This document shows, in pieces, positions 4,224 to 54,747 of a stretch of 54,748 nt of DNA (position 1 is its first letter; each line of letters begins with the position of its first letter). Below the pieces are notes generated by a model, which was not told the DNA's origin, made no database searches, and worked only from the letters and a program-made list of their open reading frames with translations. The stretch is taken from positions 1 through 54,748 of IMG/VR virus record IMGVR_UViG_3300044798_000072; one strand, given 5' to 3'. The stretch is from a virus (Duplodnaviria > Caudoviricetes). A program made the position numbers and the translations under genes.

Positions 4224-4745
4224 CTATTTCTTTTTCATTACTGCCAGCATATCGTCAAATTGGCCTTTAACCTTGCGCCGGTCATGGAGCGTGACGTTCT
4301 GGAAACAGCCAAAGAGTTCCAGGTATTGCGGGTAACGAATATCTTCAACGATGAAAAGACCGCCTGGTTTAAGTTTGGGCCAGAACACGGCCACCGCCCA
4401 AATCTGTTCGGTGATGACATGGCTGGCGTCGTCAATGATGATGTCAAAATCAGGCAGAGCATTTCTGATTTCGAGAATGTGATCCCGTTCAACTGTATCG
4501 CAACGGATGCTGGTGATTCGGTTTTCTGTAATCAATCGGGCCGGGTCATTGTCAATTCCATAGACGTGCGCATAGGTGAAAAAATCTCGCCATGCCCGAA
4601 GCGAAGCGCCGTTCATTATCCCCAATTCAAGAATGGCTTCCGCCGACTCCTGATAAGGCAGGAACAATTCTTCATACAGCGGCACATAAGAATGCGATGA
4701 CAATTTATCAGATGGATGCTTTGTAAAGGCTTCAGTAAGATTCAT
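4224..4745 (-). CDS. Class I SAM-dependent (sugar O-)methyltransferase
   Basis: ILELGIMNGASL, YGID, DIIIDDASH, LKPGGLFIVED motifs. Confidence 0.85.
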   Translation of the reverse strand: MNLTEAFTKHPSDKLSSHSYVPLYEELFLPYQESAEAILELGIMNGASLRAWRDFFTYAHVYGIDNDPARLITENRITSIRCDTVERDHILEIRNALPDFDIIIDDASHVITEQIWAVAVFWPKLKPGGLFIVEDIRYPQYLELFGCFQNVTLHDRRKVKGQFDDMLAVMKKK

Positions 4746-5947
4746 ATATTTATTTTATTTTGGTAATACCTTTCGTCCATCCATGACCGATTGTAAATAT
4801 CAACCTTTTCGGCAAGCGGTTTCCCGTCCATGTCCGCAATTAGAATTCGCAGATTCCTGCCGATTTTGAATTCTGGAATGATTGATGCCTGCGTTCGCCC
4901 CATGCGCCGGATGTATTCCGTGTGCTCACCGTAATCGGCATGGTAAATCGGGCCGCTCAAGAAACATTTCTTGCACACCCATATCTTTTCATCTTCAAAG
5001 AATTCAATCTCGCCGCGTTTAATCCGATTCCATAAATCAAACCGATTCGGTTCAAGCACGCTTTGAACTCGCTCACATTCCGCACAGCACCTTTTGAATT
5101 CATGGTCGGGTTTTATATTTGCCCGACCCGAAAACGAACCATACCAATGATGCAATCGGTAAAGTATGTGCGCCTTGCGCGAACACGTCAGCTTTGCATT
5201 GTTGGCTCGAATGCAAAAGTCTAAATCCTCGTAGTGCAGAAGGTTCGTAAAAACTTCGTCGCATCCGTTGAGTGAAAGCCAGTCTTTTCGGAACACCATG
5301 TAATTGCCGTAACAATTAAGCGGGAATAATGCAGGGAAAGCATCCTTGTCGCTGTCAGAATTCCACGATGCCCCCGGCACACCAGCCCGTTGTGGAATCT
5401 CACCCCAATTAACAACATCGCTTCCAAAGTTCCATATCTTTGTGTCATGGTTGGTTGCACTATTATCGTCCCGATTTTCCCTGTTTAACGGGTCGCATGA
5501 GTGGAAATAAAAATCCACGTTGGTTTCAGATTCAAGACAGACTTTTGTGAAATCAGGACGCACAAAACGCCAGCACGAATACCGTACAATTCTTGGCGAC
5601 TCAGAAAAACAATAGGCAGCGTTAAATACGGCACAGTCCAGACGTTTTGCAATGTGCTGATTCGGCGTGTATGGAACATGAACGATGTGCAGTTTGTAAT
5701 GTTCCGCAAGCTCCTTCATGTAACCGCTGCGTTTTGAAAAATGCGGGTCAACAATCAGCACGTCGAAATCTTTCACGGTTTGCTCAGACAAACATCGCAG
5801 TTGAGCGCGAAGCAGCCAGTCGCCTTCATACATGAAAGATGGTGTCATTGAAATGGTAAGCGGCCTTATATTGGCCCGCCTGAACACATTCACCAACTCG
5901 TCATGTTCTTGGCCGGTTGCTTTTCTCACAATCTTAAATCCTCCCAC
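4742..5947 (-). CDS. GT-A fold glycosyltransferase (GT2/GT7-like); probable start GTG at 5929
   Basis: LSEQTVKDFDVLIVD N-terminal motif; LNGCDEVF...YEDLDF C-terminal motif. Confidence 0.75.
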   Translation of the reverse strand: MGGFKIVRKATGQEHDELVNVFRRANIRPLTISMTPSFMYEGDWLLRAQLRCLSEQTVKDFDVLIVDPHFSKRSGYMKELAEHYKLHIVHVPYTPNQHIAKRLDCAVFNAAYCFSESPRIVRYSCWRFVRPDFTKVCLESETNVDFYFHSCDPLNRENRDDNSATNHDTKIWNFGSDVVNWGEIPQRAGVPGASWNSDSDKDAFPALFPLNCYGNYMVFRKDWLSLNGCDEVFTNLLHYEDLDFCIRANNAKLTCSRKAHILYRLHHWYGSFSGRANIKPDHEFKRCCAECERVQSVLEPNRFDLWNRIKRGEIEFFEDEKIWVCKKCFLSGPIYHADYGEHTEYIRRMGRTQASIIPEFKIGRNLRILIADMDGKPLAEKVDIYNRSWMDERYYQNKINI

Positions 5948-7554
5948 CTAAATTCGGCAATCGCAGACCTGCAATCATTCTGTCCGACTGCAACCAGGAT
6001 GTTATCCCCGTCCAAGAACGCACCGTAAGGAATCACCACATTCCTCTTCCAGTGGTGACAGTCGTGGACATATCGTTCATCACCGCAAAGTAAATATCTT
6101 CCCACGACCTTGACGGTTGCGAATGGCGGCCTGTTCTCCATCAGGCAAGTCCCGATGAAATAGCGGAACGACCTGTCGGGATAAACTTTTCTGGAATGGA
6201 AAAACCGGAGCAGTTTGTCGCCGCGCAGAAGCACCGCCCCGCCCCTTATCTCGCCATTCGGCCAAGTCGGGGCGGGCGACCTGTGTTCAGCCACAACCGT
6301 TTCCCGGTCAACTTCCAGCACAATTTGTTTCCCGTCCTTGATGCCGTAAATGAAATACAACTTTCCGCCCACCACAAACGGACACCAGTTTTTTTCCATG
6401 CCCGAAAAGTCGTTGTGTCCGTATTTGGGCTGGTAATGCTTTTCAACGCGCCACTGTTCCTTTTCTTCGATAACCGGCCCGTATCCCATGACCGAGAACC
6501 ACCGACCGCTTCTTTCCGTTGAAAGTGTGTATGCCGCATAAAGCCTTTCATTGAAAACGAACAATCTTGCATCCTCTTGCCCATATTCCCTATACATTTC
6601 GGGCAGAGTTAACGACAAAGTTCGCTTCCCATCGTCAATAACCAGCTTGGTTTTCCAGTTTTGAGCGGGGTGGTAACGGTAGGATTTTATCAGCCGATTG
6701 CCAAATCGCACAGCAGACAGATTGTAACCATTGTGGAACATTGTCCCACACGGGGTAATTTCAGCCGGCTTGACCCCTCGTATGATGTCCACCATTTCAA
6801 ACAGAATCCTTTTCTTGCGCCGTTCCCATTCCCCATACCGGCAATAAAATCTGAATTTAGGATGCCACGCTGAACCACGCCAACCGTCAGCGGCCAGAAC
6901 AATCGTTGGAACTTTGGATGCCTTTGAAAGATGAACGTGCGCCGTCTCAACCGTTACCAGACAATCGGCCTTGTCATATAAACCAAGCACATCAAAAATC
7001 CGGCTGGCCTTGACTTCGGACAGCCTGATAATCTTGTGGGTTGAACCAAATTCATCCTTCAACATCTTCGCCAGTTCGTTAGCTTGTTGAAACGGTGACG
7101 ACTCGCTGTGGTCGGCAAAGAGGATGAACTTCTCACTAGGGCTTGCACCCCGCCCACACCTCACTGTGCTTCTTATCAGTATCCGCTCCCGCAAGCTGCT
7201 GCGCTGGTCAAACACCAGCGGCCAATCCTCAAAATGTTCAACGCAGCCCGCACGAAGCCACTGGCTGTATTGAAATGAAGGCGTTTTGTGTTCCACGGGA
7301 TAATCCCTGCCGTGAGTTTGCGGGACAATAACATTCTCGAATTTTCGCTTGGCCAACTTTATCGCTCCCCGAACGTCGCCCATGTCACCGTCAAAAATCA
7401 CCGGCCCGACATACGACACGCCTTGCAGAATGTCAGCGTATTGCTTGGCTATGACCAGCGAAGGTTTGATTCCTGTTGTTTGGAACTCATGCAGCAGGAT
7501 TGGGAGAACTGACGCTACATCGCCGTATTTTCCGGTTTGGACATAGGCTTTCAT
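5926..7554 (-). CDS. Fusion of GT9-like (GT-B) domain and GH130/beta-mannosyltransferase-like beta-propeller
   Basis: N-terminal GKYGD and LVTVETAHVHL (GT9-like); C-terminal EDARLF, EKNWCPF, IRGG, VVIPYGA, GQND (5-blade propeller family). Confidence 0.7.
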   Translation of the reverse strand: MKAYVQTGKYGDVASVLPILLHEFQTTGIKPSLVIAKQYADILQGVSYVGPVIFDGDMGDVRGAIKLAKRKFENVIVPQTHGRDYPVEHKTPSFQYSQWLRAGCVEHFEDWPLVFDQRSSLRERILIRSTVRCGRGASPSEKFILFADHSESSPFQQANELAKMLKDEFGSTHKIIRLSEVKASRIFDVLGLYDKADCLVTVETAHVHLSKASKVPTIVLAADGWRGSAWHPKFRFYCRYGEWERRKKRILFEMVDIIRGVKPAEITPCGTMFHNGYNLSAVRFGNRLIKSYRYHPAQNWKTKLVIDDGKRTLSLTLPEMYREYGQEDARLFVFNERLYAAYTLSTERSGRWFSVMGYGPVIEEKEQWRVEKHYQPKYGHNDFSGMEKNWCPFVVGGKLYFIYGIKDGKQIVLEVDRETVVAEHRSPAPTWPNGEIRGGAVLLRGDKLLRFFHSRKVYPDRSFRYFIGTCLMENRPPFATVKVVGRYLLCGDERYVHDCHHWKRNVVIPYGAFLDGDNILVAVGQNDCRSAIAEFRWEDLRL

Positions 7555-7581
7555 TCACTTGCGCCGGATGTGAATTATTGG

Positions 7582-7737
7582 CTATTCAACAATAGGGGGT
7601 TTTATTATCCGCCAAAATATAATTGCGACACTGAAAAGATGAACCGCAAAGAACCCCCGAAGAAATGGAGGTTCTGTTTTATGCCAAGAAATCCCAATTA
7701 GCCAGATTTTCCAGTCGAAGATTATTTCAGGTTTCAT
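7582..7737 (-). CDS. Small hydrophobic hypothetical protein (51 aa)
   Basis: Manually translated MKPEIIFDWKIWLIGISW...PPIVE; start overlaps the groES 3' end. Confidence 0.45.
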   Translation of the reverse strand: MKPEIIFDWKIWLIGISWHKTEPPFLRGFFAVHLFSVAIIFWRIIKPPIVE

Positions 7738-8071
7738 CTAAAATTCCTTCCACGTCATGCTGTTTGATTTGCACCAATCGCTTGTCACCAATCTCGCAAA
7801 ACAGTCCTGAGAACTTTTTGAAAACAACCCGTTGTCCAATCTTGAATTCAGGTTCAACCAGCACGCCTTTCTTGGTTCTCAGTTTTCCGCCCATTGCGAA
7901 CACCGTTCCGGTGCTTGGCATGTCCCGGTCACGGTAAGTTTCGGGCTTCAAAATCAATCCCGATTTTTCAGGTTCGGGGTCGGGAAGGATAAATACATTT
8001 CCGGCAGTTGGCCGAAGCCTAAGACGGCGCTTGAGGCAACTCTGATTTGGCTCGCCAGTTTTCGGGGGCAT
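7727..8071 (-). CDS. groES: Co-chaperonin GroES/Cpn10
   Basis: LRPTAGNVFI...SGLIL...GTVFAMGG...KIGQRVVFKKFSG...DVEGIL. Confidence 0.9.
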   Translation of the reverse strand: MPPKTGEPNQSCLKRRLRLRPTAGNVFILPDPEPEKSGLILKPETYRDRDMPSTGTVFAMGGKLRTKKGVLVEPEFKIGQRVVFKKFSGLFCEIGDKRLVQIKQHDVEGILDET

Positions 8072-8487
8072 TATTTGCCCTCCTTCGACTCACGCTCAGA
8101 GTGCCTCAGCTTTGTTTTAGACCACGGAACTACATCAAACCAATATGAACGAAAAATCAAATTTGCAAACCGACCAGATGCTTCTTGGTGCAACCGCCGG
8201 ATATATGGGATTGAGGAAGTTTGTTCTTGAGTGGTATTCACAGATGACGAGTGAGCCGATGAATCAGGCAGAGCAAAGACTTCGCGGGTATATTGACGCA
8301 GAACTAGAGAGACTATTGAGGGAGTTGGCTGAAAGTGGCTCTCCTGATTATGCCAGAATTTTAGATTTCCGCAAAAAGCAATCACCTTAGATATGAAGTC
8401 CAAAATCCGTGGTCTAACAATGCGCTTCAGGACAACGCCGGGTGCGCTGGCCGGTTTAGCTGCATCACTGGTCGGTTTGGTTGTCAT
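8071..8487 (-). CDS. Antisense ORF starting inside attC loop, coupled to groES
   Basis: ATG in attC loop after AG-rich RBS-like tract; stop overlaps groES start (TAATG); composition not typical of a folded protein. Confidence 0.35.
   Translation of the reverse strand: MTTKPTSDAAKPASAPGVVLKRIVRPRILDFISKVIAFCGNLKFWHNQESHFQPTPSIVSLVLRQYTREVFALPDSSAHSSSVNTTQEQTSSIPYIRRLHQEASGRFANLIFRSYWFDVVPWSKTKLRHSERESKEGK
8145..8390 (+). CDS. Cassette-borne helical hypothetical protein
   Basis: 81-aa protein-like ORF in canonical position just upstream of attC. Confidence 0.6.
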   Translation: MNEKSNLQTDQMLLGATAGYMGLRKFVLEWYSQMTSEPMNQAEQRLRGYIDAELERLLRELAESGSPDYARILDFRKKQSP

Positions 8488-8535
8488 TCGTTTTCCTTTC
8501 TCTCACGGCGCGTGCCTGAGCTTGGGTTGTTAGGT
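8412..8535 (+). repeat. attC site
   Basis: GTCTAAC-aatgc-GCTTCAGG...CCTGAGC-ttgggtt-GTTAGGT (R'', L'', L', R' layout). Confidence 0.85.
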
Positions 8536-9732
8536 TCTTTTCGTCATCTTGTCAATTTCAGCAGCCATTGCGTCCGAGCCTTTGGGAGCGCCTTCGGGCG
8601 GTGGCGTTCCGCCGCCTTCGCCGCCGCTACCAGGGTCGGACTTGCGGTATTTTTTCAGTTCTTCCTCTTTGGACGCAATATCGGCCCGAAGCTGTTTGAT
8701 TATCACTTGGTCGCGCGGCCATGAAACGGCCCACCGCCGAATCAGCGATGTCATTTTGGCGCGTTCTTCCAGCGGCATATTGTTTGCACCATTGACGGCA
8801 TTATCTACAAATTCCCCGCCTTGTTTCAAGGCTGCTGTGACTTCGGCGTTTGTCCCGTCATCACCAAAGAATTCGGGATACTTCTGGACAATGGCTTGGT
8901 CATATTGATTGCGTGCGGCTTCAAACGTCTTGCCGTCGTTCTGCATCCGGTCGAGCATTTGTTTGCGCGTTTCTTGAAAGGTCACGCTCTTTTCGGACAC
9001 GGCCTTGTTGCCGTTTTCTTCAATCTGATTCAGTTCGGCGCGGTATTGCAGGGCAACATCGGCATCGTCACCAAACAGTTCTTTTGCCATCCGACGAGCA
9101 ACAGTCAGAGTTGGCGCGCCCAAAACTCGGTCAAAATCGGCCTTCGTTGCCGGTCGAGTTCTGTCCTCATCATTTTCCTTGAACGTGACAGTCAACCCCT
9201 TGACTTCTTCCAATGCCTGCCCGTATTTGTTTTTCCACGGCGTTTCATACTTGACCTTGAATTCGGGACTTTCCCGGTAATCACGGGAATAAAGGTCGGA
9301 CTCCAAAGATTGCAACCGTTGTTCCTTTTTGGCGTATTCCGCTTCCTGTTCCGGTGTCAGGAACTTGCGCTTATCCAACTCAGCAAGGCGGGATTGCAGC
9401 CGGCCAGTTTCGGCTTCCTTTTCGGACTTGGTTTGCTCGTAGGTCTTGAGCAACTTTTCGTGGGCCGTGCGGAATTCTGCCGGGGCAGTTTTCCAGTCTA
9501 ACGCTTTTTCTGCCGGGGCGGGTTTGCTTTTGGTCACTGGCGGCGTCTTTTCAGGCTTCGGTGGCGCAGGGGGTGGCGCTTTGCCCGCTTCCGGCGCTGA
9601 CGTTTCGGGCGGTGGCGCAGATTCGGGCTTGAGCGCGTCCATCTGCGATTCAAGCAGGGCGCTGCCGGTCAATGGTGCTGGCGTTACTGGCGGGGTTGTT
9701 TCAACGGGTGGAGTTGTAGAAGGTTCTGCCAT
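8530..9732 (-). CDS. Capsid scaffolding protein
   Basis: 400 aa, Pro-rich N-terminus, long coiled coil, between portal and capsid genes. Confidence 0.65.
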   Translation of the reverse strand: MAEPSTTPPVETTPPVTPAPLTGSALLESQMDALKPESAPPPETSAPEAGKAPPPAPPKPEKTPPVTKSKPAPAEKALDWKTAPAEFRTAHEKLLKTYEQTKSEKEAETGRLQSRLAELDKRKFLTPEQEAEYAKKEQRLQSLESDLYSRDYRESPEFKVKYETPWKNKYGQALEEVKGLTVTFKENDEDRTRPATKADFDRVLGAPTLTVARRMAKELFGDDADVALQYRAELNQIEENGNKAVSEKSVTFQETRKQMLDRMQNDGKTFEAARNQYDQAIVQKYPEFFGDDGTNAEVTAALKQGGEFVDNAVNGANNMPLEERAKMTSLIRRWAVSWPRDQVIIKQLRADIASKEEELKKYRKSDPGSGGEGGGTPPPEGAPKGSDAMAAEIDKMTKRT

Positions 9733-9734
9733 AA

Positions 9735-9980
9735 TCAGTTTTTGTTTTGTCCGTCAATTTGTGGGGTTGCATCAGCGATTTTCTGCGCTAGGTTTTTGGC
9801 GCGTTTTCCTACCTGCTGTTCAATGAACTGGTTGGCCAAGTCAACCTTCGTTATTTCAATGGCTGAAACCATAAAATCCAGCGGCACTTTCGCCCGCATA
9901 GCCTGTCCAACTGCCCGATGAAATGCCGTTACAAAATCTTGCGCGTTTGAGTCCATTTTAGGGTTCCAGAGTTTTGCCAT
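9735..9980 (-). CDS. Hypothetical protein
   Basis: 81-aa ORF, operon packing. Confidence 0.65.
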   Translation of the reverse strand: MAKLWNPKMDSNAQDFVTAFHRAVGQAMRAKVPLDFMVSAIEITKVDLANQFIEQQVGKRAKNLAQKIADATPQIDGQNKN

Positions 9981-10276
9981 TATTTGTCGTAGGTTTCAAG
10001 TTGGACTTTTGGCAACTGCCCAATCTTGGTGTTCTTTTCCGGCAGGTCAAGAAGCACTTCAATAAATGACCGAGCGCCCAACAACTTTTCACTGCTTGCA
10101 CCCTTTGACGCCAGTTGAGCAAGCGCGGCATCCAGCGAAACGCGCAACCAGCGGGAATTTGTCACTTCCTGCAACGCCTTCGCACTGTCGGCCTGAAACC
10201 GCTGATATTGCGCTTTGGGAGAGAAGGCGTCAACTATTGGCTCGGATACGGAAGATTCAGGTTTGGGTTTGCTCAT
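9980..10276 (-). CDS. Hypothetical protein (small head-module protein)
   Basis: 98-aa ORF, TAATG overlap. Confidence 0.65.
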   Translation of the reverse strand: MSKPKPESSVSEPIVDAFSPKAQYQRFQADSAKALQEVTNSRWLRVSLDAALAQLASKGASSEKLLGARSFIEVLLDLPEKNTKIGQLPKVQLETYDK

Positions 10277-10440
10277 GGCTTTTTCCTTTTAAATCGTTTC
10301 AACTCGCGTTGCAGTGTTTCAGCTAGCATGGAATTTGCAATTTGAGTTAGTGAAACATTGTATTCACGGTCAATTTTTTTTGACTCGCAAAAAAAACGGG
10401 CGAGGTCGGCTTCGTTTGATTCACTCAACATTACTTGCAC
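10273..10440 (-). CDS. Small basic protein, possibly ribbon-helix-helix DNA-binding
   Basis: Manually translated (M)QVMLSESNEADL...SLTQIANSMLAETLQRELKRFKRKKP; ATGA overlap with next gene. Confidence 0.4.
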   Translation of the reverse strand: MQVMLSESNEADLARFFCESKKIDREYNVSLTQIANSMLAETLQRELKRFKRKKP

Positions 10441-10449
10441 ACGCTGAAC

Positions 10450-10475
10450 TTCGTTGAATCTTCCTGAATTGTCAA
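10450..10475 (-). promoter_or_regulatory. Putative promoter TTGACA-N16-CGAA
   Basis: Intergenic; same motif at 26697-26722 and 28538-28563. Confidence 0.45.
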
Positions 10476-10479
10476 GCGG

Positions 10480-12762
10480 CTATTTTGAACTATTTTCGGC
10501 CCCGTCATTCACGCCCCGCAAGGCCGCAACGGTTCTTTCAAGGGAATCATTGATAAGTTCCTGTTTGTGACTCAAATCCTCCCGCTTGATTTCGGCCAAA
10601 AGCCTCATATTTTCGCGGGCTTGGTCAAGTTGGAATTCAATCATTTTAAGGCGTTGTTTGGCTGCATCTTGCATCTGTTTGGACTGAATCTTGGCCTGCG
10701 TCGTCATCATTATGGATTGCGCCTTGGCTGCGTCTTTGGGGTCGCCTTGTGCTCCACCCTTCGCCTGTGCTTGCCTTTGAGCGAAACTTTTAATGAAATT
10801 CATTGCCTTGCCGATAATGTCGCCATATCGCTTGATGCGCGGCTTTTCCTTTTCGTCGCCTGCCAAAACCATCAAATGTTGGCCAACGCATTGAATCGTC
10901 GTGACCAAACCGACAAGTTCATTAGGAGTTCCCATGTTGTCAGTCGCCGAAATTCTCTGGATAACTGCGCCAACCATCTTGATAAGGGTTTCGATGAAGC
11001 CAATCAAATCCACGCCCGTTCTGACTGAAACCTGATTGCCGGTCATCAATGTTCCGAACACGTTTTCGGCGGCATGAGTGCCGTCCGTTGCGCTCACTGG
11101 CGCTGTCGGCACGAGCATCAGCGCCTTAGCCGGGTCGTTGAGCATGGTTGCCGTGGACAGGCGCAAAATCTTGGTTTGCGCCATCGGGTCGTAAAGGTTT
11201 TTGTTCTGCAAAAGCCATTGGGCTTCCTGCTGCGCCAGAGTCCGGTCGCCGCCGCCAAGCACGCGCTCCGGCGTCACCCGCCATTTATCGGCCACCAGCA
11301 GTTCTTCGGGAATGCCCGCCTTGAGACAATCTTCCCTGAACTTTTTGACCTCTGCATCTTCGGATTCCTTGTAGAGAAAGCGCCTGACCAATTCCTGATA
11401 ATAAAACGCTTCCTGCAAATACATATTTTGCAGCATCCCGTTGACCATGACACTCGCCTGATTCAGCCGGGCGTTGGCTTCAAACGCTGTCATTTCCTTT
11501 TCGCGGCTGTCGTTGACATCCTTGACATAAGCCGAAGAATTCTCCTGCATCAAGCCACGCACTTCGGATTCGGCCTGCTGAACGAGTTTCGGGTCAATCT
11601 GATGGCGTTGTTCGCGTGGAACAATCGTCAATCCATCCGGGATAAACCCGTATTGCTGCAATAAAACCTGTTTAAGCCTGTCCCGGTCTGCCGGGTCTTG
11701 AATCCGAAAATACATTTTCAGGTGTTCAAACACGGCCTGAACAAATTCACAACGCAGCCGATTCAGGGTTTCCGCCGGAGCAAATAGGTCAACGCCCAAG
11801 CTCCGGACTGAATGATATTTCAGGGGCGCAACAAGATTCACGTCGCCAAATTGCACGTTCAGAATCTGGTCAATGTCATCGGCAAAAACATTGTCCTTGC
11901 CGTCGTAAATGAACTTGTCGGTTTTGACCTTGCCGATGGTTTCGCGCAAGACAATGTGCCGATACCACTTGTTAGGTTCATCCACTTCCTGCCAATAAAA
12001 TGCGCGGAGTTTTATGGTGGGAACTTTATCGGAATAAAGATAACCCTTGTTCTGGTCGTGAATTTGCTTCATCGCTTCCGGCTGGTCGCGCCAAGTTGAC
12101 GACGTGCTTTCCGTGTAAAGATTTCGTTGTTCATCCAGAATATCCCTGGCCATCTGCTGATTCCAGCCCTTGTCAACCGTTTCGCCCAACGCCATGTCTG
12201 CAAACTCTCCGGGAGTCAGATAAAGGTTCACCGCGAAATAACGCAGATTGGAAAAGTCGCAATAGGTGTCAGTCGGAATGAGCAAATCTTCCAACGGCAC
12301 AAATCGCCCCTTCCAACTGTAAGAGTTCGGCCAGAGGATTGCACCTATGCCGTGCATACAAACGGTGGCATTACGCGAACGAATCAGGAAATGATGACGC
12401 TTACCAGTGCGTCCACGCTGCAATGGCTTGTGAATCAGATTGGTGAAAACTGTTGACCATTCATCGCGCTTGTCAACCTTGCCTTCTTCCAAGGCGCAGT
12501 TGAACAGGATGCCGGGATGAAGGAGCGCATTGTTAAGCTGGCGGTTGGCATCAGCCATGACCCGCTTGCCTTCGCCCCAATTTACATTTATCTGAATGTT
12601 GAATTTTTCCTCATCCTCTTTGGTGTAGGGCTGTTGGCCATTCATCAAAGAATTTATTTTGGTGCGGTCGCTACCGCGGTCTGACTCGATTCGCTGCATG
12701 GCCTCGCAAACATCAAATATTTTTTGGGGCGAGCCGAATTCGGATTTGGATTTCCTGGCCAT
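10480..12762 (-). CDS. Portal protein
   Basis: 760 aa, helical, EMTAFEANAR motif and coiled-coil C-terminus typical of P22/podovirus-like portals. Confidence 0.75.
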   Translation of the reverse strand: MARKSKSEFGSPQKIFDVCEAMQRIESDRGSDRTKINSLMNGQQPYTKEDEEKFNIQINVNWGEGKRVMADANRQLNNALLHPGILFNCALEEGKVDKRDEWSTVFTNLIHKPLQRGRTGKRHHFLIRSRNATVCMHGIGAILWPNSYSWKGRFVPLEDLLIPTDTYCDFSNLRYFAVNLYLTPGEFADMALGETVDKGWNQQMARDILDEQRNLYTESTSSTWRDQPEAMKQIHDQNKGYLYSDKVPTIKLRAFYWQEVDEPNKWYRHIVLRETIGKVKTDKFIYDGKDNVFADDIDQILNVQFGDVNLVAPLKYHSVRSLGVDLFAPAETLNRLRCEFVQAVFEHLKMYFRIQDPADRDRLKQVLLQQYGFIPDGLTIVPREQRHQIDPKLVQQAESEVRGLMQENSSAYVKDVNDSREKEMTAFEANARLNQASVMVNGMLQNMYLQEAFYYQELVRRFLYKESEDAEVKKFREDCLKAGIPEELLVADKWRVTPERVLGGGDRTLAQQEAQWLLQNKNLYDPMAQTKILRLSTATMLNDPAKALMLVPTAPVSATDGTHAAENVFGTLMTGNQVSVRTGVDLIGFIETLIKMVGAVIQRISATDNMGTPNELVGLVTTIQCVGQHLMVLAGDEKEKPRIKRYGDIIGKAMNFIKSFAQRQAQAKGGAQGDPKDAAKAQSIMMTTQAKIQSKQMQDAAKQRLKMIEFQLDQARENMRLLAEIKREDLSHKQELINDSLERTVAALRGVNDGAENSSK

Positions 12763-37019: not shown

Positions 37020-37112
37020 CCAACAACCGCAACCCGAAGCCGGATTCGACCTGACGCCATAAGCAAACCAAAAACGAATATGAAGAAACATCTTGTCACT
37101 GCAAAACGCGCT

Positions 37113-37180
37113 GTGAAACGACAAGCCGCTGCCGGAACTGGAGTGCGTAGCTCCAGTTCTGTGCAGCGCCCTTGTTAGGC
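37113..37180 (-). repeat. attC-like site 1 (degenerate)
   Basis: AAC...cgctgc-cggaactggag/ctccagttctg-t-gcagcg-ccctt-GTTAGGC. Confidence 0.55.
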
Positions 37181-37201
37181 CACTCGCAACGAAATAAAAA
37201 T

Positions 37202-37459
37202 ATGAACATAACATTCGATAAACTGACGCTCGAAATAAACCGAGAGGAGGCATACGCGCTCTACTCGACAATCAAACATGGTCTTGAGGACAGAATCAAA
37301 GACCACTGGCACAACCATCCAGACTCATACGAGAAACTGGAATCTCAACGACTGCACATGATGCGTGAACTTGCCAGATTCACGGGCAACGACTTTAACT
37401 ATGACTCCGCCGAGCTAAAAAGGCTGCTGACGGAATACCAGAAACCTAAAGTGGCCTAA
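37202..37459 (+). CDS. Cassette 1 hypothetical protein
   Basis: Stop TAA inside GCCTAAC. Confidence 0.7.
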   Translation: MNITFDKLTLEINREEAYALYSTIKHGLEDRIKDHWHNHPDSYEKLESQRLHMMRELARFTGNDFNYDSAELKRLLTEYQKPKVA

Positions 37460-37577
37460 CGCCGCGCTATGCCGCGACTCTGGAAACGAGCGTGGAGCGC
37501 AAAAACCGGAATAAAATTATGAGCAAAACAACGAACGTAAGACGCCAAGAGTCGTTGGCATCAGCAAGAGGTTCTAC
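37454..37577 (-). repeat. attC-like site 2
   Basis: GCCTAAC..gctatgccgcgactct / agagtcgttggcatcagc..GTTCTAC. Confidence 0.8.
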
Positions 37578-37761
37578 AGCTTCGTGCGACCTGCGAAGCC
37601 CACTAGCAAAAGCGCGTGACGCATTTCTGGCGAGCGAGGAAGGCGAGAAGCTGACGAATCCAGGCATACTAAGAAGCCGTGACCTGCGCCAATATCTCGA
37701 AAATCGAATCGAACTCGCCTACCTCGCGGGCGTAGCCGATGCCAAAAAGCTAAAGCTGTAG
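37519..37761 (+). CDS. Cassette 2 hypothetical protein
   Basis: ATG in attC2 loop; stop TAG in GTAGAAC. Confidence 0.7.
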   Translation: MSKTTNVRRQESLASARGSTASCDLRSPLAKARDAFLASEEGEKLTNPGILRSRDLRQYLENRIELAYLAGVADAKKLKL

Positions 37762-37889
37762 AACGACCGACTTGCGCCGCAGCCACGGATAACGGCTGAC
37801 GGCTCCGAAAAGGAAAAAATATGAGAGAAGAAAAAGACCAATCGAAAACTGAAAGCGTAGTGGCTGTTGGCTCGAAGGAGTTGTTAGCG
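37758..37889 (-). repeat. attC-like site 3
   Basis: GTAGAAC..gccgcagccac / gtggctgttggc..GTTAGCG. Confidence 0.75.
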
Positions 37890-38042
37890 ATGGAACAATT
37901 ATACGCGAAGCTCAAACACCGAGAGCACGAACAAAGAGTAAAAGCCGTCGAAGCCGTGAACCGTGCCGAAACATACCAAGACGCTTCAATAGAAGTGGAC
38001 TTCACGATGGACAAAATCAAGAAAATGCTCACAAGCAGCTAA
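37821..38042 (+). CDS. Cassette 3 coiled-coil hypothetical protein
   Basis: ATG in attC3 loop; stop in GCTAAC. Confidence 0.7.
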   Translation: MREEKDQSKTESVVAVGSKELLAMEQLYAKLKHREHEQRVKAVEAVNRAETYQDASIEVDFTMDKIKKMLTSS

Positions 38043-38126
38043 CGCAGAGTTCAGGAACGCCGCACGCAAGGCGTCCGACTCTGAAGGCAGCGTCCAATAG
38101 GCGTTTCCTGCAACGATTTGTTGGGC
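38037..38126 (-). repeat. attC-like site 4
   Basis: AGCTAAC-gcaga-gttcaggaacgcc / ggcgtttcctgcaac-gattt-GTTGGGC. Confidence 0.85.
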
Positions 38127-38148
38127 AGCAAAATTGAGATATACAAAA

Positions 38149-38856
38149 ATGAAAAAGACACTTGGCGAACTTATCGAACCCGGATTTAGCCACTATCGAA
38201 GCATCGGCGAACTGGCGCGCACGCTCCAATTCCTGATGTCCACGGCGCACACATTCCGCGACCCAGGCCGCTGGGGAACTTCCGGCCCGCAAGAATATCT
38301 GTGCGCCTACGGCGGATGCGTGAACTGCGACACCCAGCCGTGGCACAGTGGCCGGATCGTCTCAACAAATCCCCATGTGGTCGAGACAACCACATGGCAG
38401 CAAAACCAAGACAGCATCCGCGACTGCATCCTCGACGCGCTCTGCTCACGCTATCCGGCGGAACTGCGCTGGCGGAAGCGGCACAAAATCAGTCTCGACA
38501 CGCTGCTGAAATTCCCGATGGCTTATCAGAATCAGGACAACGAAAAAAAGGTGTGGGAGCAACCGATGGGGCTTGGACTCGGCGGGACATTCGTGCCATG
38601 CGTCGAACCGATACTATTCTGCCGACGCGGAAACCTGCCCGCAAAACGCCGAATGGATCGCAACTGGTGGGGGTGGCCGCGTGGACGGCACAGCCAAAAA
38701 CCAGAAGCGTTTCAGACGATGGTGGAGTCAGTAAGTCCCGGCCCATACTTGGAAATGTTTGCTCGACGCAAGCGGGAAGGCTGGGCGGCGTGGGGCAATG
38801 AAATAACCAGTGACCTAAAAATGCAGAACATTGGCGCTGAGGCGCGCGACCTATGA
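38149..38856 (+). CDS. Chimeric protein with C-terminal half of an MT-A70 adenine methyltransferase
   Basis: GLG...EPILFCRRG, HSQKPE, YLEMFAR, GWAAWGNE present; catalytic DPPW absent. Confidence 0.7.
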   Translation: MKKTLGELIEPGFSHYRSIGELARTLQFLMSTAHTFRDPGRWGTSGPQEYLCAYGGCVNCDTQPWHSGRIVSTNPHVVETTTWQQNQDSIRDCILDALCSRYPAELRWRKRHKISLDTLLKFPMAYQNQDNEKKVWEQPMGLGLGGTFVPCVEPILFCRRGNLPAKRRMDRNWWGWPRGRHSQKPEAFQTMVESVSPGPYLEMFARRKREGWAAWGNEITSDLKMQNIGAEARDL

Positions 38857-38926
38857 CAACCGCAAACGAAAATGCTCCCGGCAAACCTGAAGGCGTAATC
38901 ACGTCGCCTCCAGCAACTTGTTCGGT
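38823..38926 (-). repeat. attC-like site 5
   Basis: GCAGAAC..gctgaggcg / cgcctccagc-aactt-GTTCGGT. Confidence 0.8.
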
Positions 38927-39101
38927 GGCTTGGTGGATCGTATTGAGGCCACCAGAAAAGTGGGCGCGCGGCGAATTCAGCCACAGTCCGATGCCAATAG
39001 CCGCATTCATAAGTGAACGGATGGCGAAGGAATGGATAGCGTCCGCAGCGCACAGATACCGTGATATAATTCAGCCACCGAATGAGAAAGTTCAGATATG
39101 A
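38853..39101 (+). CDS. Cassette 5 hypothetical protein
   Basis: ATG in attC5, ATGA overlaps at both ends. Confidence 0.65.
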   Translation: MTTANENAPGKPEGVITSPPATCSVAWWIVLRPPEKWARGEFSHSPMPIAAFISERMAKEWIASAAHRYRDIIQPPNEKVQI

Positions 39102-39207
39102 GCGACCAAAATCACAAGCACTTTTATATTTACGGGCGATGCCAATGCGGGCAAGTCCAACCGAACTACAACGCGCAGAGCGAATTATCTGCAACGCCTT
39201 GTTCGGC
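39077..39207 (-). repeat. attC-like site 6
   Basis: ACCGAAT..gttcagata / tatctgcaac-gcctt-GTTCGGC. Confidence 0.7.
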
Positions 39208-39343
39208 GTGGGTGACGGCGATCTGGCGTGAATCGTTTCGTTGTGAACACACCTCGCTATTGGTGTTTTGTAGCTGGTTAACAGCAATGGGAAAGCTGCA
39301 AGCATCGGGCTGGCCTGTGCATTTTGAGGGCCGTGAACAATGA
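39098..39343 (+). CDS. Cassette 6 hypothetical protein
   Basis: ATG in attC6. Confidence 0.5.
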   Translation: MSDQNHKHFYIYGRCQCGQVQPNYNAQSELSATPCSAWVTAIWRESFRCEHTSLLVFCSWLTAMGKLQASGWPVHFEGREQ

Positions 39344-39344
39344 C

Positions 39345-39476
39345 GCCGAACGCCAAGCTCACTGACCGGAGCGCCAAATGACAATTTCGCCACACGCACC
39401 CCGCAACCAGGCACCGCGACCGGCGCTGTCTGAACTGGAAGCGCAAGCTCCGGTTCAGTGCAGCGCCGGGTTAGCC
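39345..39476 (-). repeat. attC-like site 7
   Basis: GCCGAAC-gccaa-gctcactgaccggagc / gctccggttcagtgcagc-gccgg-GTTAGCC. Confidence 0.9.
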
Positions 39477-39704
39477 TGCATTTCGACGGCGATGGTGGCG
39501 AAACATAAAGGCTGCCCGGAGCTAAAACCGTGTAAGCACTGCGGCTACTCGCCGGTGAGGATTGACACGACATTTGCGAACGGCTCGAAAGCCTTCGCCT
39601 TCGGATGCCCGAATGAGGAATGCAACCCGCGAGGCCGGCATTCGGTCTTGATGCCATCGAAGCGGGAAGCAGCAGCCGCATGGAATTACGCCAATGCAGG
39701 CTAA
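39378..39704 (+). CDS. Lar-like restriction alleviation Zn-finger protein
   Basis: LKPCKHCG...CPNEEC...AAAAWN. Confidence 0.7.
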   Translation: MTISPHAPRNQAPRPALSELEAQAPVQCSAGLACISTAMVAKHKGCPELKPCKHCGYSPVRIDTTFANGSKAFAFGCPNEECNPRGRHSVLMPSKREAAAAWNYANAG

Positions 39705-39826
39705 CGATCAAGCTCACGCGCAGCCACTTGTGAGCGAGACAGGAAAATGAAACCAACAACCAAATTACTGCGACGCACGACAAAACCGAGGGGCGAGTGG
39801 CTGTTGCGTGCAGCGCGGTGTTAGAC
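39699..39826 (-). repeat. attC-like site 8
   Basis: GGCTAAC..gctcacgcgcagccac / gtggctgttgcgtgcagc-gcggt-GTTAGAC. Confidence 0.9.
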
Positions 39827-39831
39827 GACCT

Positions 39832-40104
39832 ATGACGAGAGAAATCATAATACAACCAGTGCTCAACGGCTACGTGTGTGTCGTTGGATGTCAGCGCGTC
39901 GCGTTCACTGACAAGCAAACGATGCTGGGGCAACTCAGCGAATACCTCGACAAGCCCGATGAAGTGGAACAACGCTACATCGAACGTGCCGTGAACAAAA
40001 TGCCAGCGGTGCCGCAACCGTGCAGGCCAACCGACTGCTGTGAGTCAAGCGCGCCCACGCCGTCCGTAACGATGGGACGTGTGGAAGAACGCCGGCCACG
40101 ATAA
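39832..40104 (+). CDS. Cassette 8 hypothetical protein
   Basis: MTREIIIQPVLNGYVCVVGCQ... Confidence 0.7.
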   Translation: MTREIIIQPVLNGYVCVVGCQRVAFTDKQTMLGQLSEYLDKPDEVEQRYIERAVNKMPAVPQPCRPTDCCESSAPTPSVTMGRVEERRPR

Positions 40105-40138
40105 CACAAATGACGACCAGGCTCGCAAGGGTCTGGTC

Positions 40139-40430
40139 GTCTAACGACGGAGCTATGCCGCGCCGTCAAACTAAATAAAAATATGGAAAATCCAAAACTT
40201 CTAGCCTGCCCGTTCTGTGGCAGCGAAGTGACGCTCAAAGATACCGGCAATGACGCCGGATACCGATGGCTCGTGCGCTGCGATAATGCGCTCTGCATGG
40301 TCAACCCATTCGCACGGGCAAAAAGCCTAGATGCGACAATGGCAATCTGGAACCAAAGGGCAGGCGGTCGAAAACCAGCGCCGCCCGAAACCGAGACCGT
40401 AAAGGCGTTGGCATCAGCGACTGGTTCTAC
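40139..40430 (-). repeat. attC-like site 9 with ~240-nt coding loop
   Basis: GTCTAAC..gctatgccgcgcc / ggcgttggcatcagc-gactg-GTTCTAC. Confidence 0.75.
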
Positions 40431-40656
40431 CGCTGGCTACGACTGGACTGTGATGTGCGATAAATTGCCACCGCACTGCGTCAGGGTGATGACCTATTCA
40501 CCACAACCAATCGGTGCGCGGCAGAATCTTACGGACGGAGTAGCCATCCTATGCTGGAACGCTCACGAACAACGATGGTGCGATGACAACGGGGAGACAT
40601 CCATGTTCAAACCGACAGCCTGGTGGCCAATAACCATCCCAACTAAAAAGCGGTAG
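40183..40656 (+). CDS. Lar-like Zn finger fused to DUF551-like domain
   Basis: ACPFCG...CDNALC...IWNQR then WTVMCDKLP...PTAWWPI. Confidence 0.75.
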   Translation: MENPKLLACPFCGSEVTLKDTGNDAGYRWLVRCDNALCMVNPFARAKSLDATMAIWNQRAGGRKPAPPETETVKALASATGSTAGYDWTVMCDKLPPHCVRVMTYSPQPIGARQNLTDGVAILCWNAHEQRWCDDNGETSMFKPTAWWPITIPTKKR

Positions 40657-40746
40657 AACACCCAAGCTGAGCGATGACGCCACTACCAACATCCGATTGC
40701 AAACAAGAGCGCCAAGGCGTCATTCGCTCCAGCGCCCTTGTTAGGC
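40653..40746 (-). repeat. attC-like site 10
   Basis: GTAGAAC..gctgagcgatgacgc / gcgtcattcgctccagc..GTTAGGC. Confidence 0.9.
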
Positions 40747-41513
40747 ATCTTGTCCTATTTTCAGGAGGTCTTGTCTCTTGGGCGACAGCAAAGCGCGTGG
40801 TAGCAGCCCACGGCACGGATGGCGTAGTGCTGCTGTTCGCTGACACGATGATGGAAGATGAAGACCTGTATCGCTTCATAGTCCAAGCCGCCGAAAATGT
40901 CGGCGTGCCGCTGACTCGAATCGCGGACGGTCGCAACCCGTGGGAAGTCATGCGCGATGAACGAATCATCGGCGGCGGAATGACTGGCGCTGATCCATGC
41001 AGCAAAATACTGAAACGCCAACTGCTCGACCGATGGACGCGGGAAAACTGCCAGCCGGAAACGGTTTCTCATGTGGGACTCGACTGGACAGAGCATCACC
41101 GGCTAGACCGGATGCGCGTGAGGATGCCGGAACGCAAATGGTCTGCGCCGATGACAGAAGCTCCCTACATGACGAAGCCGCAAATGATGGCGTGGCTGAA
41201 ATCGGAAGGCATCGAACCTCCGAGACTCTACAAAATGGGATTCCCGCACAACAACTGCGGCGGCTTCTGCATCAAAGCCGGTCAAGCTCACTTCGAGCTA
41301 CTGCTGCGGATGATGCCAGACCGCTACGCTTACCACGAACAGAAGGAAGAAGAAATGAGACAGATGCTCGGAAAAGACTATGCCGTGCTGCGCGAACAGC
41401 GCGACGGAAACAAATTCCCGCTCACGCTGCGGAAGCTGCGCGAGCGGATTCAGTCACAAGGCTCATTCGACCAATTCGAGTGGGGCGGCTGTGGCTGCGC
41501 GATAGATGCCTAA
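40674..41513 (+). CDS. PAPS-reductase-like (PP-loop, Cys-cluster) phage protein
   Basis: FSGGLVS, FADTMMEDEDLYRF, CSKILK, HNNCGGFCIKAG, GGCGC. Confidence 0.8.
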   Translation: MTPLPTSDCKQERQGVIRSSALVRHLVLFSGGLVSWATAKRVVAAHGTDGVVLLFADTMMEDEDLYRFIVQAAENVGVPLTRIADGRNPWEVMRDERIIGGGMTGADPCSKILKRQLLDRWTRENCQPETVSHVGLDWTEHHRLDRMRVRMPERKWSAPMTEAPYMTKPQMMAWLKSEGIEPPRLYKMGFPHNNCGGFCIKAGQAHFELLLRMMPDRYAYHEQKEEEMRQMLGKDYAVLREQRDGNKFPLTLRKLRERIQSQGSFDQFEWGGCGCAIDA

Positions 41514-41606
41514 CGTATGAGCCAAGCCACAGCCAACCAGAAACCGTCAACCGCGATAGCGGATGCTGGACGCCCGATGGCTGTTGGCTTCGGCGATTTG
41601 TTCGGC
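41508..41606 (-). repeat. attC-like site 11
   Basis: GCCTAAC..gccaagccacagcca / tggctgttggcttcggc-gattt-GTTCGGC. Confidence 0.85.
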
Positions 41607-41861
41607 ATCGTGCTGTCGGTCCGCGAGTCTGCAATAGTGAAACTTCTCTCGGAGGGCATGACCGTAAAAGAGATCGCCCTCAATCTCAAAATCTCGAATA
41701 AGACCGTCGAGTTCCACTCCCTGCGAGCGCGCCGGAAAATCGGTAATCTATCCATTGCTGTGATGACTCGGTTCGCAATCATAAATGGACTGAGTGAACT
41801 TACGATGCCGAACAGAGAGATAACCAACACAAAATCCGACTCTAAATCCACAAATGCCTAG
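41517..41861 (+). CDS. LuxR-type HTH protein
   Basis: LSVRESAIVKLLSEGMTVKEIALNLKISNKTVEFH. Confidence 0.85.
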   Translation: MSQATANQKPSTAIADAGRPMAVGFGDLFGIVLSVRESAIVKLLSEGMTVKEIALNLKISNKTVEFHSLRARRKIGNLSIAVMTRFAIINGLSELTMPNREITNTKSDSKSTNA

Positions 41862-54532: not shown

Positions 54533-54747
54533 ACAATTTGACTCCATCCGTTGACGTATCCCCATACGATTTTGTTTACATCAATCACAACACTGGCCAG
54601 ATTAGGCGGATTTAATATCGGTGGCCCGGCATAATTTATTGAATCTGGCGCTCCTTCCACTCCCGTGCCGCCATTGCTTGCCCCATACAGGACGCAGAGC
54701 ATTATGTCGCGCGGTGAAAGTCTGTCGTATCCGGCGGCAATGGCATC
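54529..54747 (-). CDS. Partial small protein paralogous to 1076..1339
   Basis: Manually translated ...DAIAAGYDRLSPRDIMLCVL...VIDVNKIVWGYVNGWSQIV; ATGA overlap with copy B. Confidence 0.7.
   Translation of the reverse strand, partial: DAIAAGYDRLSPRDIMLCVLYGASNGGTGVEGAPDSINYAGPPILNPPNLASVVIDVNKIVWGYVNGWSQIV

Follow-up and report, generated by a model that had tools for sequence, protein, structure and literature searches.

A probable integron-type gene cassette lies antisense within the head operon of an uncultured peat phage

We analyzed the viral record IMGVR_UViG_3300044798_000072 (Duplodnaviria; Caudoviricetes) over its whole length of 54,748 bases, hereafter the window, for which completeness is estimated at 97%. 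Within the head operon, between a scaffold-like gene and the gene for the co-chaperonin GroES, the window holds a 413-bp unit (positions 8117-8529, + strand) that we interpret as an integron-type gene cassette lying beside a decayed attC and inserted by an integron integrase acting in trans. We put the probability of this overall reading at roughly 70%. The unit consists of an orphan cargo gene of 81 aa (ORF81; open reading frame [ORF] at 8145-8390, +), antisense to the head operon, followed by an attC-type site of 124 nt (8412-8535, +) with its top strand on the same strand as the ORF. Both this site and the decayed one upstream (8017-8122, +) appear, from sequence comparison, to belong to the attC family of chromosomal integron arrays in soil and peat Verrucomicrobiota.

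Architecture of the cassette unit

The arrangement is that of a cassette, a single ORF and then an attC, both on the + strand. ORF81 starts 23 nt past the upstream R' box and stops 21 nt ahead of the R'' box of its own site. The unit begins with TTAGAC, which are the first six bases past the crossover point of the decayed site, and ends at the G of its own GTTAGGT box; this right boundary, G|TTAGGT, obeys the G|TT rule. A first-pass annotation made from the letters alone had described 12-bp complementary ends, an 81-aa ORF on the top strand, and a scaffold stop codon supplied by the GTTAGGT box, and all three are present. The ends form a perfect 12-nt inverted repeat, the left arm (8117-8128) lying at the cassette start and being complementary to the right arm (8406-8417), which overlaps the R'' box. 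The final six bases of the site are on the phage side of the boundary and contain the scaffold stop codon (TTA at 8530-8532). Scans of the insert for promoters (sigma-70 consensus only) and terminators found nothing, and an Rfam search of 7600-8900 gave only one chance-level match (MEG8_3, E 0.31).

A separate feature of the unit is the motif CTGGYCGGTTT, which occurs as two tandem copies in the middle of the attC (8447-8459 and 8468-8480, +) and as one inverted copy within codons 8 to 11 of ORF81 (8165-8177, -). The copies form a second perfect 12-nt inverted repeat (8166-8177/8468-8479) that crosses the first.

The attC-type site in the unit

The site at 8412-8535 is bounded by the R'' box GTCTAAC (8412-8418) and the R' box GTTAGGT (8529-8535). 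In the available text of PMC5027507, an attC is defined by R'' RYYYAAC and R' GTTRRRY at its ends, 57-141 nt apart. GTCTAAC fits the former and GTTAGGT the latter; just 4 of 11 distinct, correctly delimited class 1 sites (5/14 of all rows, as delimited by a script) have both boxes in this strict form. The site shares the consensus boxes with class 1 attCs (aadA1, aadA2, cmlA1, and others), its arm-pairing score of 14.0 compares with 11.3-15.8 for class 1 array sites, and its first 10 nt, GTCTAACAAT, are identical to those of the aadA1 and aadA2 sites. Extrahelical bases are expected on the arm opposite the AAC of the bottom strand; when the arms were paired by hand, one bulged base was found on that arm (T in GCTTCAGG) and one on the other arm; single-base bulges also break the paired arms in minimum-energy folds. 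A rule-based scan for both boxes plus arm pairing ranked the site first of 22 box pairs in the window (11 places, both strands).

We next scored the window with two covariance models. Model R1 was built from 13 class 1 attCs, the class 1 sites being taken from integrons on ten plasmids; its structure was written by hand from the aadA1 fold and then checked, because RNAalifold predicted none on the class 1 alignment. R1 recovers six held-out real attCs, identified by their cassettes, at 17.5-41.4 bits. Its alignment to 8412-8535 covers the full 60 model positions; the R and L boxes are paired, with an unpaired spacer between them, and 4 of the 17 pairs are non-standard. Model R2 was built from 56 bacterial attC sites only, all from the integrase-bearing Verrucomicrobial arrays described below. 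R2 gives the site 38.4 bits (E 1.4e-8 window-wide, model E-values being rough by the tool's own statement), the third best score in the window, and the best R2 match outside the attC family reaches 12.2 bits. On the phage sites of relatives, R2 scores were 23.3-63.1 bits. Since phage scores lie below bacterial ones, the phage copies are diverged members of the bacterial attC family. No copy stood out by pairwise identity as the nearest relative of the head-operon site.

Bacterial integron arrays of the same attC family

We scanned a single genome for each prokaryote species with a 23-letter pattern derived from the phage sites, and at least 120 stretches matched. Among the matches listed, 76 of 120 are records named Verrucomicrobia-type, many from soil, bog, palsa, or peat (counted from titles), and 13 stretches hold at least four copies of the pattern. 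Five such loci (L039, L071, L078, L097, and L104) gave 65 R1 matches in 40 kb, mostly of 99 nt and on one strand per locus. The integron integrase family TIGR02249 was found above its curated cut-off in 5/5 of these metagenome-assembled genomes (MAGs) versus 0/14 control genomes, and on one contig intI lies divergent beside the array, ~670 nt from the last site. The attC top strand carries the longer ORF in 27 of 30 bacterial cassettes. These results point to a shared attC family, so the phage host was probably a member of the Verrucomicrobiota.

The complementary ends of the unit also have counterparts in these arrays. In 30/30 bacterial cassettes, the first bases are perfectly complementary over 7-12 nt to the region of the cassette's own R'', compared with 12 nt in the head-operon unit, and joining 8527-8529 to 8117 onward would yield a perfect 15-nt stem with 8406-8420, as expected of a circular cassette. 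The complementary ends are therefore a hallmark of the family and not transposon ends. A miniature inverted-repeat transposable element, or another transposon that duplicates TA, had been considered, as a TA duplication with 9-nt terminal repeats is another way to interpret the 12-nt repeat; it was dropped because the bacterial cassettes all share the complementarity, 84% of the unit is ORF, and the window holds no other copies of the ends.

The attC pattern was also seen on several contigs of MAGs labeled Bifidobacteriaceae ("binchicken" co-assemblies; L040, L052, L056, L058, L066, L092, L106, L112, and others), one of which has four copies; these labels seem doubtful for this attC type.

The decayed upstream site and the GroES start

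The first-pass annotation had noted a decayed attC arm at 8101-8116. The likeness is real (8101-8117 matches 8512-8528 at 14/17 positions), but the arm is part of a nearly full-length decayed site at 8017-8122 (+), with R'' GCCTAAG and R' TTTAGAC, which scores 28.1 bits with R2 (E 1e-5) and 10.8 bits with R1. Its bottom strand appears to have become the beginning of the GroES gene: it supplies the Shine-Dalgarno sequence, the ATG, and ~17 N-terminal codons, overlapping the first 18 codons. The Shine-Dalgarno sequence, GAAGGAGG, is strong and lies 7 nt upstream of the ATG. The Cpn10 match begins at residue 19 here; in three relatives it begins at residue 2-3, and in the related locus L004 at residue 14.

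The ~17 predicted extra N-terminal residues (MPPKTGEPNQSCLKRRL...) are encoded at 8018-8071 (-). A segmental duplication of the GroES 5' end had been considered as the origin of the site at 8412-8535 and was replaced by two members of one repeat family. A rebuilt ancestral empty junction left GroES without a start codon, so no claim is made on the exact point of the first insertion.

The scaffold-GroES junction in related phages

The head genes lie on the - strand in the order portal-like, scaffold-like, a 458-bp gap, and Cpn10/GroES. The portal-like gene (10480-12762) encodes 760 aa and has 306 homologues. The scaffold-like gene (8530-9732, 400 aa) is the upstream neighbor of the cassette; its product matched no Pfam family or PHROG, and its homologues come after the portal-like gene in relatives. 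Its scaffold function is assumed from position and composition. The downstream neighbor, the phage GroES gene (7727-8071), matches Pfam Cpn10 (E 8.9e-11, residues 19-110) and the PHROG co-chaperonin GroES.

Portal alignments gave related loci, 8 from viral contigs and 16 from metagenomes, and ORFs were listed for seven of the viral loci. In five of these seven, the scaffold and GroES genes abut or overlap and the cassette is absent from the junction: the two genes overlap by 4 nt in L002, L003, and L008 and are 3 nt apart in L006 and 33 nt apart in L007. In L003 and L008 the GroES gene was confirmed as Cpn10 by tblastn, in L002 and L007 by Pfam, and the L006 match reaches 19.8 bits, just below the 21.1 cut-off. 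In L004, two extra genes of 138 and 93 aa lie in the slot on the same strand (10220-10902), with no Pfam family and no attC-type site, so the junction takes ordinary insertions too; L009 has an unassigned 73-aa ORF there. Neither R1 nor R2 found a site at the junction in 22 distinct relatives' loci, and blastn of the insert against 23 relatives' loci gave short matches only (≤21 nt, best E 0.092). The metagenome loci reaching the junction (L011, L012, and L020) were scanned by tblastn only. Positions 7000-10500 had no DNA match among 50,697 phage records, and locus searches with single proteins (the portal-like protein, ORF81, and the homologues P0002 and P0005 introduced below) gave no confirmed locus.

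The first-pass annotation had suggested looking for relatives with an empty junction, and five of the seven viral loci have one; among the relatives examined, the region is not an ordinary gene kept in all, and it scores as attC with R2. Its central suggestion of a captured host-style cassette agrees with the insertion relative to these five loci, with the R2 scores, with the integrase-bearing arrays, and with the matching geometry and size of the unit.

Coding strand of the cassette

Two long ORFs occupy the unit on opposite strands. Besides ORF81, the operon strand has an ORF of 138 codons (8071-8487, -) that begins in the middle of the attC and whose stop overlaps the GroES ATG as TAATG (8069-8073), exactly as first annotated. 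We asked which strand codes. The codon score of ORF81 is 0.204, against 0.156 ± 0.09 for real genes, and that of the 138-codon ORF is 0.029, where shadow ORFs average -0.05 ± 0.09. Comparing the two frames with a periodic Markov model gives +0.066 per nt for ORF81, with a likelihood ratio of about 90-245, and the mirrored value was reached by none of 291 real-gene windows of 81 codons. AlphaFold2 predicted three helices for ORF81 with a predicted local distance difference test (pLDDT) score of 84.1 from two sequences; the 138-codon ORF, modeled from one sequence, reached 47.9 with no residue at or above 70.

Homology searches gave few matches for either frame. P0002 is the sole ORF81 homologue found among 5.8 billion proteins; it has 81 aa and is 85% identical without an indel. 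ORF81 has no match in Pfam, PHROG, or the folds of the PDB (Foldseek: 0 at E 0.001 or better), and the protein atlas gave no usable feature match, its structural neighbors all lying below the bar. The 138-codon ORF has no full-length match in the predicted-protein library, the best being a 40-aa piece. An exhaustive protein search with it returned four proteins: a 40-aa identical fragment, P0004, P0005, and one spurious repeat protein. P0004 aligns to the cassette body alone (8131-8370, 33/80 identical), and its ends are peptides of attC bottom strands: in six-frame translations of the bacterial loci, among the matches listed, CSDLLG occurs 21 times and PNVES-stop 43 times. Because its ends are encoded by attC bottom strands, P0004 can be read, at the protein level only, as an antisense reading of a distant ORF81-type cassette between attCs. 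P0005 shares just 27 attC-coded residues (24/27 identical) and then diverges, which indicates, likewise at the protein level, different cargo behind the same site. The unit thus appears polymorphic, being absent from the junction of five of seven relatives and probably replaced by other cargo in the case of P0005. Plus-strand homologues in bacterial integrons had been expected; tblastn of ORF81, P0002, P0004, and P0005 against the 120 bacterial loci (828 kb, among the matches listed) gave no significant match, and the single candidate is the one deduced from the ends of P0004.

It could be argued that the 138-codon ORF is the functional product, either a "reverse cassette" gene or a spacer ORF coupling translation into GroES, and that ORF81 is its shadow. 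The frame lies on the operon strand, a GGA-rich stretch precedes its ATG by 8 nt, and its stop overlaps the GroES start. Genes in the site cluster described below also start within attC sites, one of them with a similar N-terminus (MTPLPTSD versus MTTKPTSD), P0005 has a similar open frame over different cargo, and just 11 of the 291 real-gene windows keep this antisense frame open. Against these stand the Markov and codon scores; the difference in pLDDT, to be read with the caveat of one versus two sequences; the fact that the predicted protein on record for the window is ORF81; the strong ribosome-binding site that GroES has of its own; and the opposite-strand ORFs of at least 85 aa in 7 of 30 bacterial cassettes. 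P0004 and P0005 are moreover subject to ascertainment bias, because they were seen only via the open frames of a gene caller. We judge a functional 138-codon product to be quite improbable. The evidence favors the + strand, with ORF81 as a real gene, and the 138-codon ORF is best read as a by-product, a non-coding shadow frame.

This result bears on two further proposals of the first-pass annotation. Tolerance of the cassette through antisense read-through that avoids polarity is not supported, as the 138-codon ORF is shadow-like, GroES has its own Shine-Dalgarno sequence, and long opposite-strand ORFs are common in the cassette family. Nothing was found here in support of an intermediate towards reverse cassettes or de novo genes.

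A second cluster of sites in the window and in relatives

The unit had also been called a solo cassette. It is so within the head operon only, as further sites of the family are clustered elsewhere in the window. R1 revealed seven - strand sites at 37.7-41.6 kb with 11.9-34.3 bits (best E 4e-6), in addition to the decayed site at 8017-8122, and all nine R1 sites of the window align as one family. With R2, the cluster comprises nine sites of the family (37049-41606, top strand on -; 16.4-65.8 bits). There was no + strand R1 match at the seven site positions; two + rows (7.4 and 6.1 bits) lie elsewhere in the region. The genes between the sites include a weak MT-A70 match (38134-38856, +), a Lar-like protein (40183-40656, +), a weak PAPS-reductase match (40674-41513, +), and a GerE/LuxR regulator (41517-41861, +).

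Similar clusters were found in three of five relatives' whole records, at 59-64% portal identity: L036 (G001:C1:1500-5500; seven R1 matches with filters off and eight R2 matches), L037 (G005:C1:7600-10500; four and five), and L038 (G002:C1:42900-45000; two and one). No sites were found in two other complete relatives (G003 and G004). Across 22 R1 matches from the window and these three loci, 84.7% of cells pair, compared with 22-40% when the partners are slid, a count biased towards structure because the alignment is fitted to the model; compensatory changes were found in 9/9 L-box pairs.

Evidence against integron-type insertion and other explanations

A number of results weigh against the interpretation of the unit as an integron-type cassette, and the first group concerns folding. 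The 124-nt site folds no better than its shuffles (z -0.64 for the top strand and -0.02 for the bottom strand). It has no stable whole-site hairpin: the bottom strand reaches -13.4 kcal/mol (z -0.02 to -0.4) and the top strand -16.5 kcal/mol, so that the bottom strand is 3.1 kcal/mol less stable, opposite to the trend given in the available text of PMC5027507. The centre of the site (~8443-8504, ~62 nt) is unpaired. In a comparison with class 1 sites (11 distinct ones with correct boundaries; the detection of a twelfth, qnrVC1, was faulty), the z-scores were -0.3 (bottom) and -0.9 (top), versus -2.9 to -9.7 for class 1 bottom strands, and the folding energy was -0.108 kcal/mol per nt, about one-third to one-half of their -0.21 to -0.32.

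The second group concerns scores and boundaries. R1 gives the site 12.2 bits (E 1.2 over the whole window, 0.067 over 3 kb), below all six held-out attCs, and with R1 both head-operon sites fall under 20 bits, the threshold of the pipeline in the available text of PMC9892861. Under R2, the held-out bacterial sites (54.6-103.9 bits) all score above 38.4 bits. The left boundary of the cassette reads T|TTAGAC, with a T (8116) in place of the expected G. The cargo search was empty apart from P0002, which sits on a contig of 2153 nt, and the best E for ORF81 in the bacterial array loci was 0.11.

The third group concerns the phage itself. The genes between the cluster sites (37492-41861) lie on the + strand, that is, on the attC bottom strand, the reverse of bacterial cassettes, and the genes in L036, L037, and L038 are likewise on the strand opposite to the sites. 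At both loci of the window, the sites follow local transcription, which also fits a phage-intrinsic role. No tyrosine or serine recombinase (PF00589 or PF00239) was found in the 97%-complete record, and the layout of a complete integron, intI with attI adjoining cassettes, is lacking. The contigs of two peat-metagenome runs that contain the stretch, possibly the source samples, held no recombination joint or insert variant; no RNA run is listed among the sequencing runs containing the stretch.

Some of these results would also suit a chance resemblance or an assembly chimera, in which a bacterial integron stretch was misjoined or an ordinary intergenic region happens to fit the boxes. The whole-site fold is one of them. 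Moreover, 21 of 300 dinucleotide shuffles of the window equal the result of the rule-based scan, and the only runs containing the stretch may be the source samples. The R2 scores of 38.4 and 28.1 bits for the two head-operon sites, however, compare with 12.2 bits for the best match outside the family, and GroES starts within the upstream site. A unit of 413 bp with phage genes within 50 nt on either side is an unlikely chimera, and the contigs of 14.1 kb and 50.9 kb from the two runs are identical over the stretch, without any difference. We regard chance or misassembly as a highly improbable explanation. The z-scores of the fold and the shuffle rate of 7% had at first suggested that the site was probably not an attC, a view dropped in light of the covariance models and the bacterial arrays.

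A different explanation is that the ~100-130-nt repeats are junction elements intrinsic to the phage, descended from attC or converging on it. They would form hairpins of RNA or DNA where genes meet and serve in processing, termination, coupling, or the shuffling of modules, and the ORF81 module would have moved by homologous or illegitimate recombination between repeats and not by an integron integrase. Gene order around the sites lends itself to this explanation: in three relatives as well as at both window loci, the flanking genes have their sense strand on the attC bottom strand, 6/9 window sites (5/7 of the stronger cluster sites) have the upstream gene's stop codon in their R' box, and several genes begin inside a cluster site or just past one. 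The arrays also persist at only 59-64% portal identity, the phage lacks an integrase, its R2 scores are well under the bacterial ones (16.4-65.8 versus 54.6-103.9 bits), and a direct likeness of ~42 nt flanks the insert. The wider flank likeness is marginal, however, as 13 of 500 shuffles reach its local score, and RNA folds of the nine copies show no consistent strand preference. The sites are homologous to bacterial integron attCs, central motifs included, the ORF81 unit has the bacterial layout of a top-strand ORF and 12-nt ends, unlike the phage's own array, and the insert has no promoter-like or terminator-like site. On balance, we consider phage-intrinsic junction elements an unlikely account of the head-operon unit.

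A possible route of insertion

If the unit is an integron-type cassette, its position could be explained as follows. During infection, a host integron integrase, acting in trans, would have recombined folded cassette DNA at a G|TT in the phage genome, the target being the complement of the scaffold stop context ACC-TAA-C. Insertion with this geometry leaves the stop codon on the phage side and allows the cassette only one orientation, with its top strand antisense to the operon. An attC may have been left at the junction by an initial event, and in a second event the ORF81 cassette would have entered through the same crossover point. Decay of the older site (G to T at 8116) would have followed, and GroES may have recruited the bottom strand of that site to supply its ribosome-binding site, its start codon, and its first ~17 codons. 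ORF81 has no detectable promoter (the scan covered sigma-70-type sites only) and runs against the late transcript, so it probably travels as a silent passenger. The ORF of 138 codons would have arisen as a by-product of the GC-rich cassette sequence.

A bolder version would place the phage lineage in permanent exchange with the host chromosomal integron and make its arrays the birthplace of new (reverse) cassettes. In that version, the host integrase would insert attC units at AA|C directly after stop codons, which would explain both the sites antisense to flanking genes and the R' boxes that double as stops. Phage genes bracketed by wrong-strand attCs would then be excisable inverted cassettes that could be banked in bacterial integrons, and the head-operon cassette would represent traffic in the opposite direction. 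We think such an exchange unlikely.

Relation to known systems

Phage morons and T4-type mobile promoter-stem-loop cassettes are small extra genes between repeated structured elements, variably present at a junction. The ORF81 unit is similar in this respect, but no promoter or terminator was detected in the insert, and its repeats are homologous to bacterial integron attCs. Compared with class 1 attCs, the site lacks the whole-site hairpin and has a low R1 score, as described above. The unit also resembles the cassettes of sedentary chromosomal integrons of the Verrucomicrobiota, with which it shares the attC family, the ORF on the attC top strand, and the end complementarity (12 nt here and 7-12 nt there); the cassette body measures 289 bp, versus 188-530 bp in Verrucomicrobial cassettes. 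Unlike these, the unit is not in an array beside intI and attI, and its site is diverged and 124 nt long, where theirs are mostly 99 nt.

Phage-borne clusters of attC sites without an integrase (CALINs) are already published. According to the available text of Qi et al. 2023 (PMC9892861), they were found in 17 phages among 10,705 genomes screened, in a survey that required two sites per cluster and used general models, and 5/6 tested phage attCs recombined with IntI1; the same text points out GTTRRRY motifs at boundaries and brings up recombination that is off-target or illegitimate. With R2, the sites at 8017-8122 and 8412-8535 form a CALIN in the sense of that text, at least two predicted attCs within 3 kb and no integrase. 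The likeness extends to the attC-type sites with cassettes but no integron integrase, to the methyltransferase-like and orphan cargo, and to the grouping of the sites, two within 400 bp at the head operon and a larger cluster elsewhere. The present phage belongs to an uncultured peat lineage outside the NCBI set of that survey. Relative to the cases in the available text, what is new is the antisense place of the cassette within the head operon, the decayed site reused as the start of a phage gene, the inverted orientation of the main array, whose genes are all on the attC bottom strand, and the tie to the Verrucomicrobiota. The result suggests that phages can acquire integron cassettes even within structural operons.

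Integron cassettes are thought to move mainly among bacterial integrons on chromosomes, plasmids, and transposons. Phage carriage has been reported recently, for clusters found with general models only (PMC9892861, in its available text). Here, the structural operon of a phage that is probably virulent would harbor a canonical host-type cassette, translation of a phage chaperonin gene appears to start in a decayed attC that has been put to new use, and an uncultured lineage of peat phages is linked to Verrucomicrobial hosts through the attC family. Because general models under-score such sites (12 bits, compared with 38 bits for the host-family model), phage surveys may miss them. The unit also provides a concrete case for asking if integrase-driven insertion at stop-codon contexts shapes phage genomes.

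Other features of the record

Between GroES and the presumed capsid gene, the region 4224-7554 (-) contains two large ORFs without family matches, one of 542 aa that relatives also conserve and one of 401 aa, together with a methyltransferase-like gene (PHROG 21658); such content is unusual for a head operon. The two ends of the record (1-1094 and 53547-54565) carry similar ORFs, with stretches 88-98% identical and runs of 9-nt repeats, including tandem 9-nt units at 432-593. These ORFs represent either two paralogous fibre-like genes or an imperfect terminal redundancy of the assembly.

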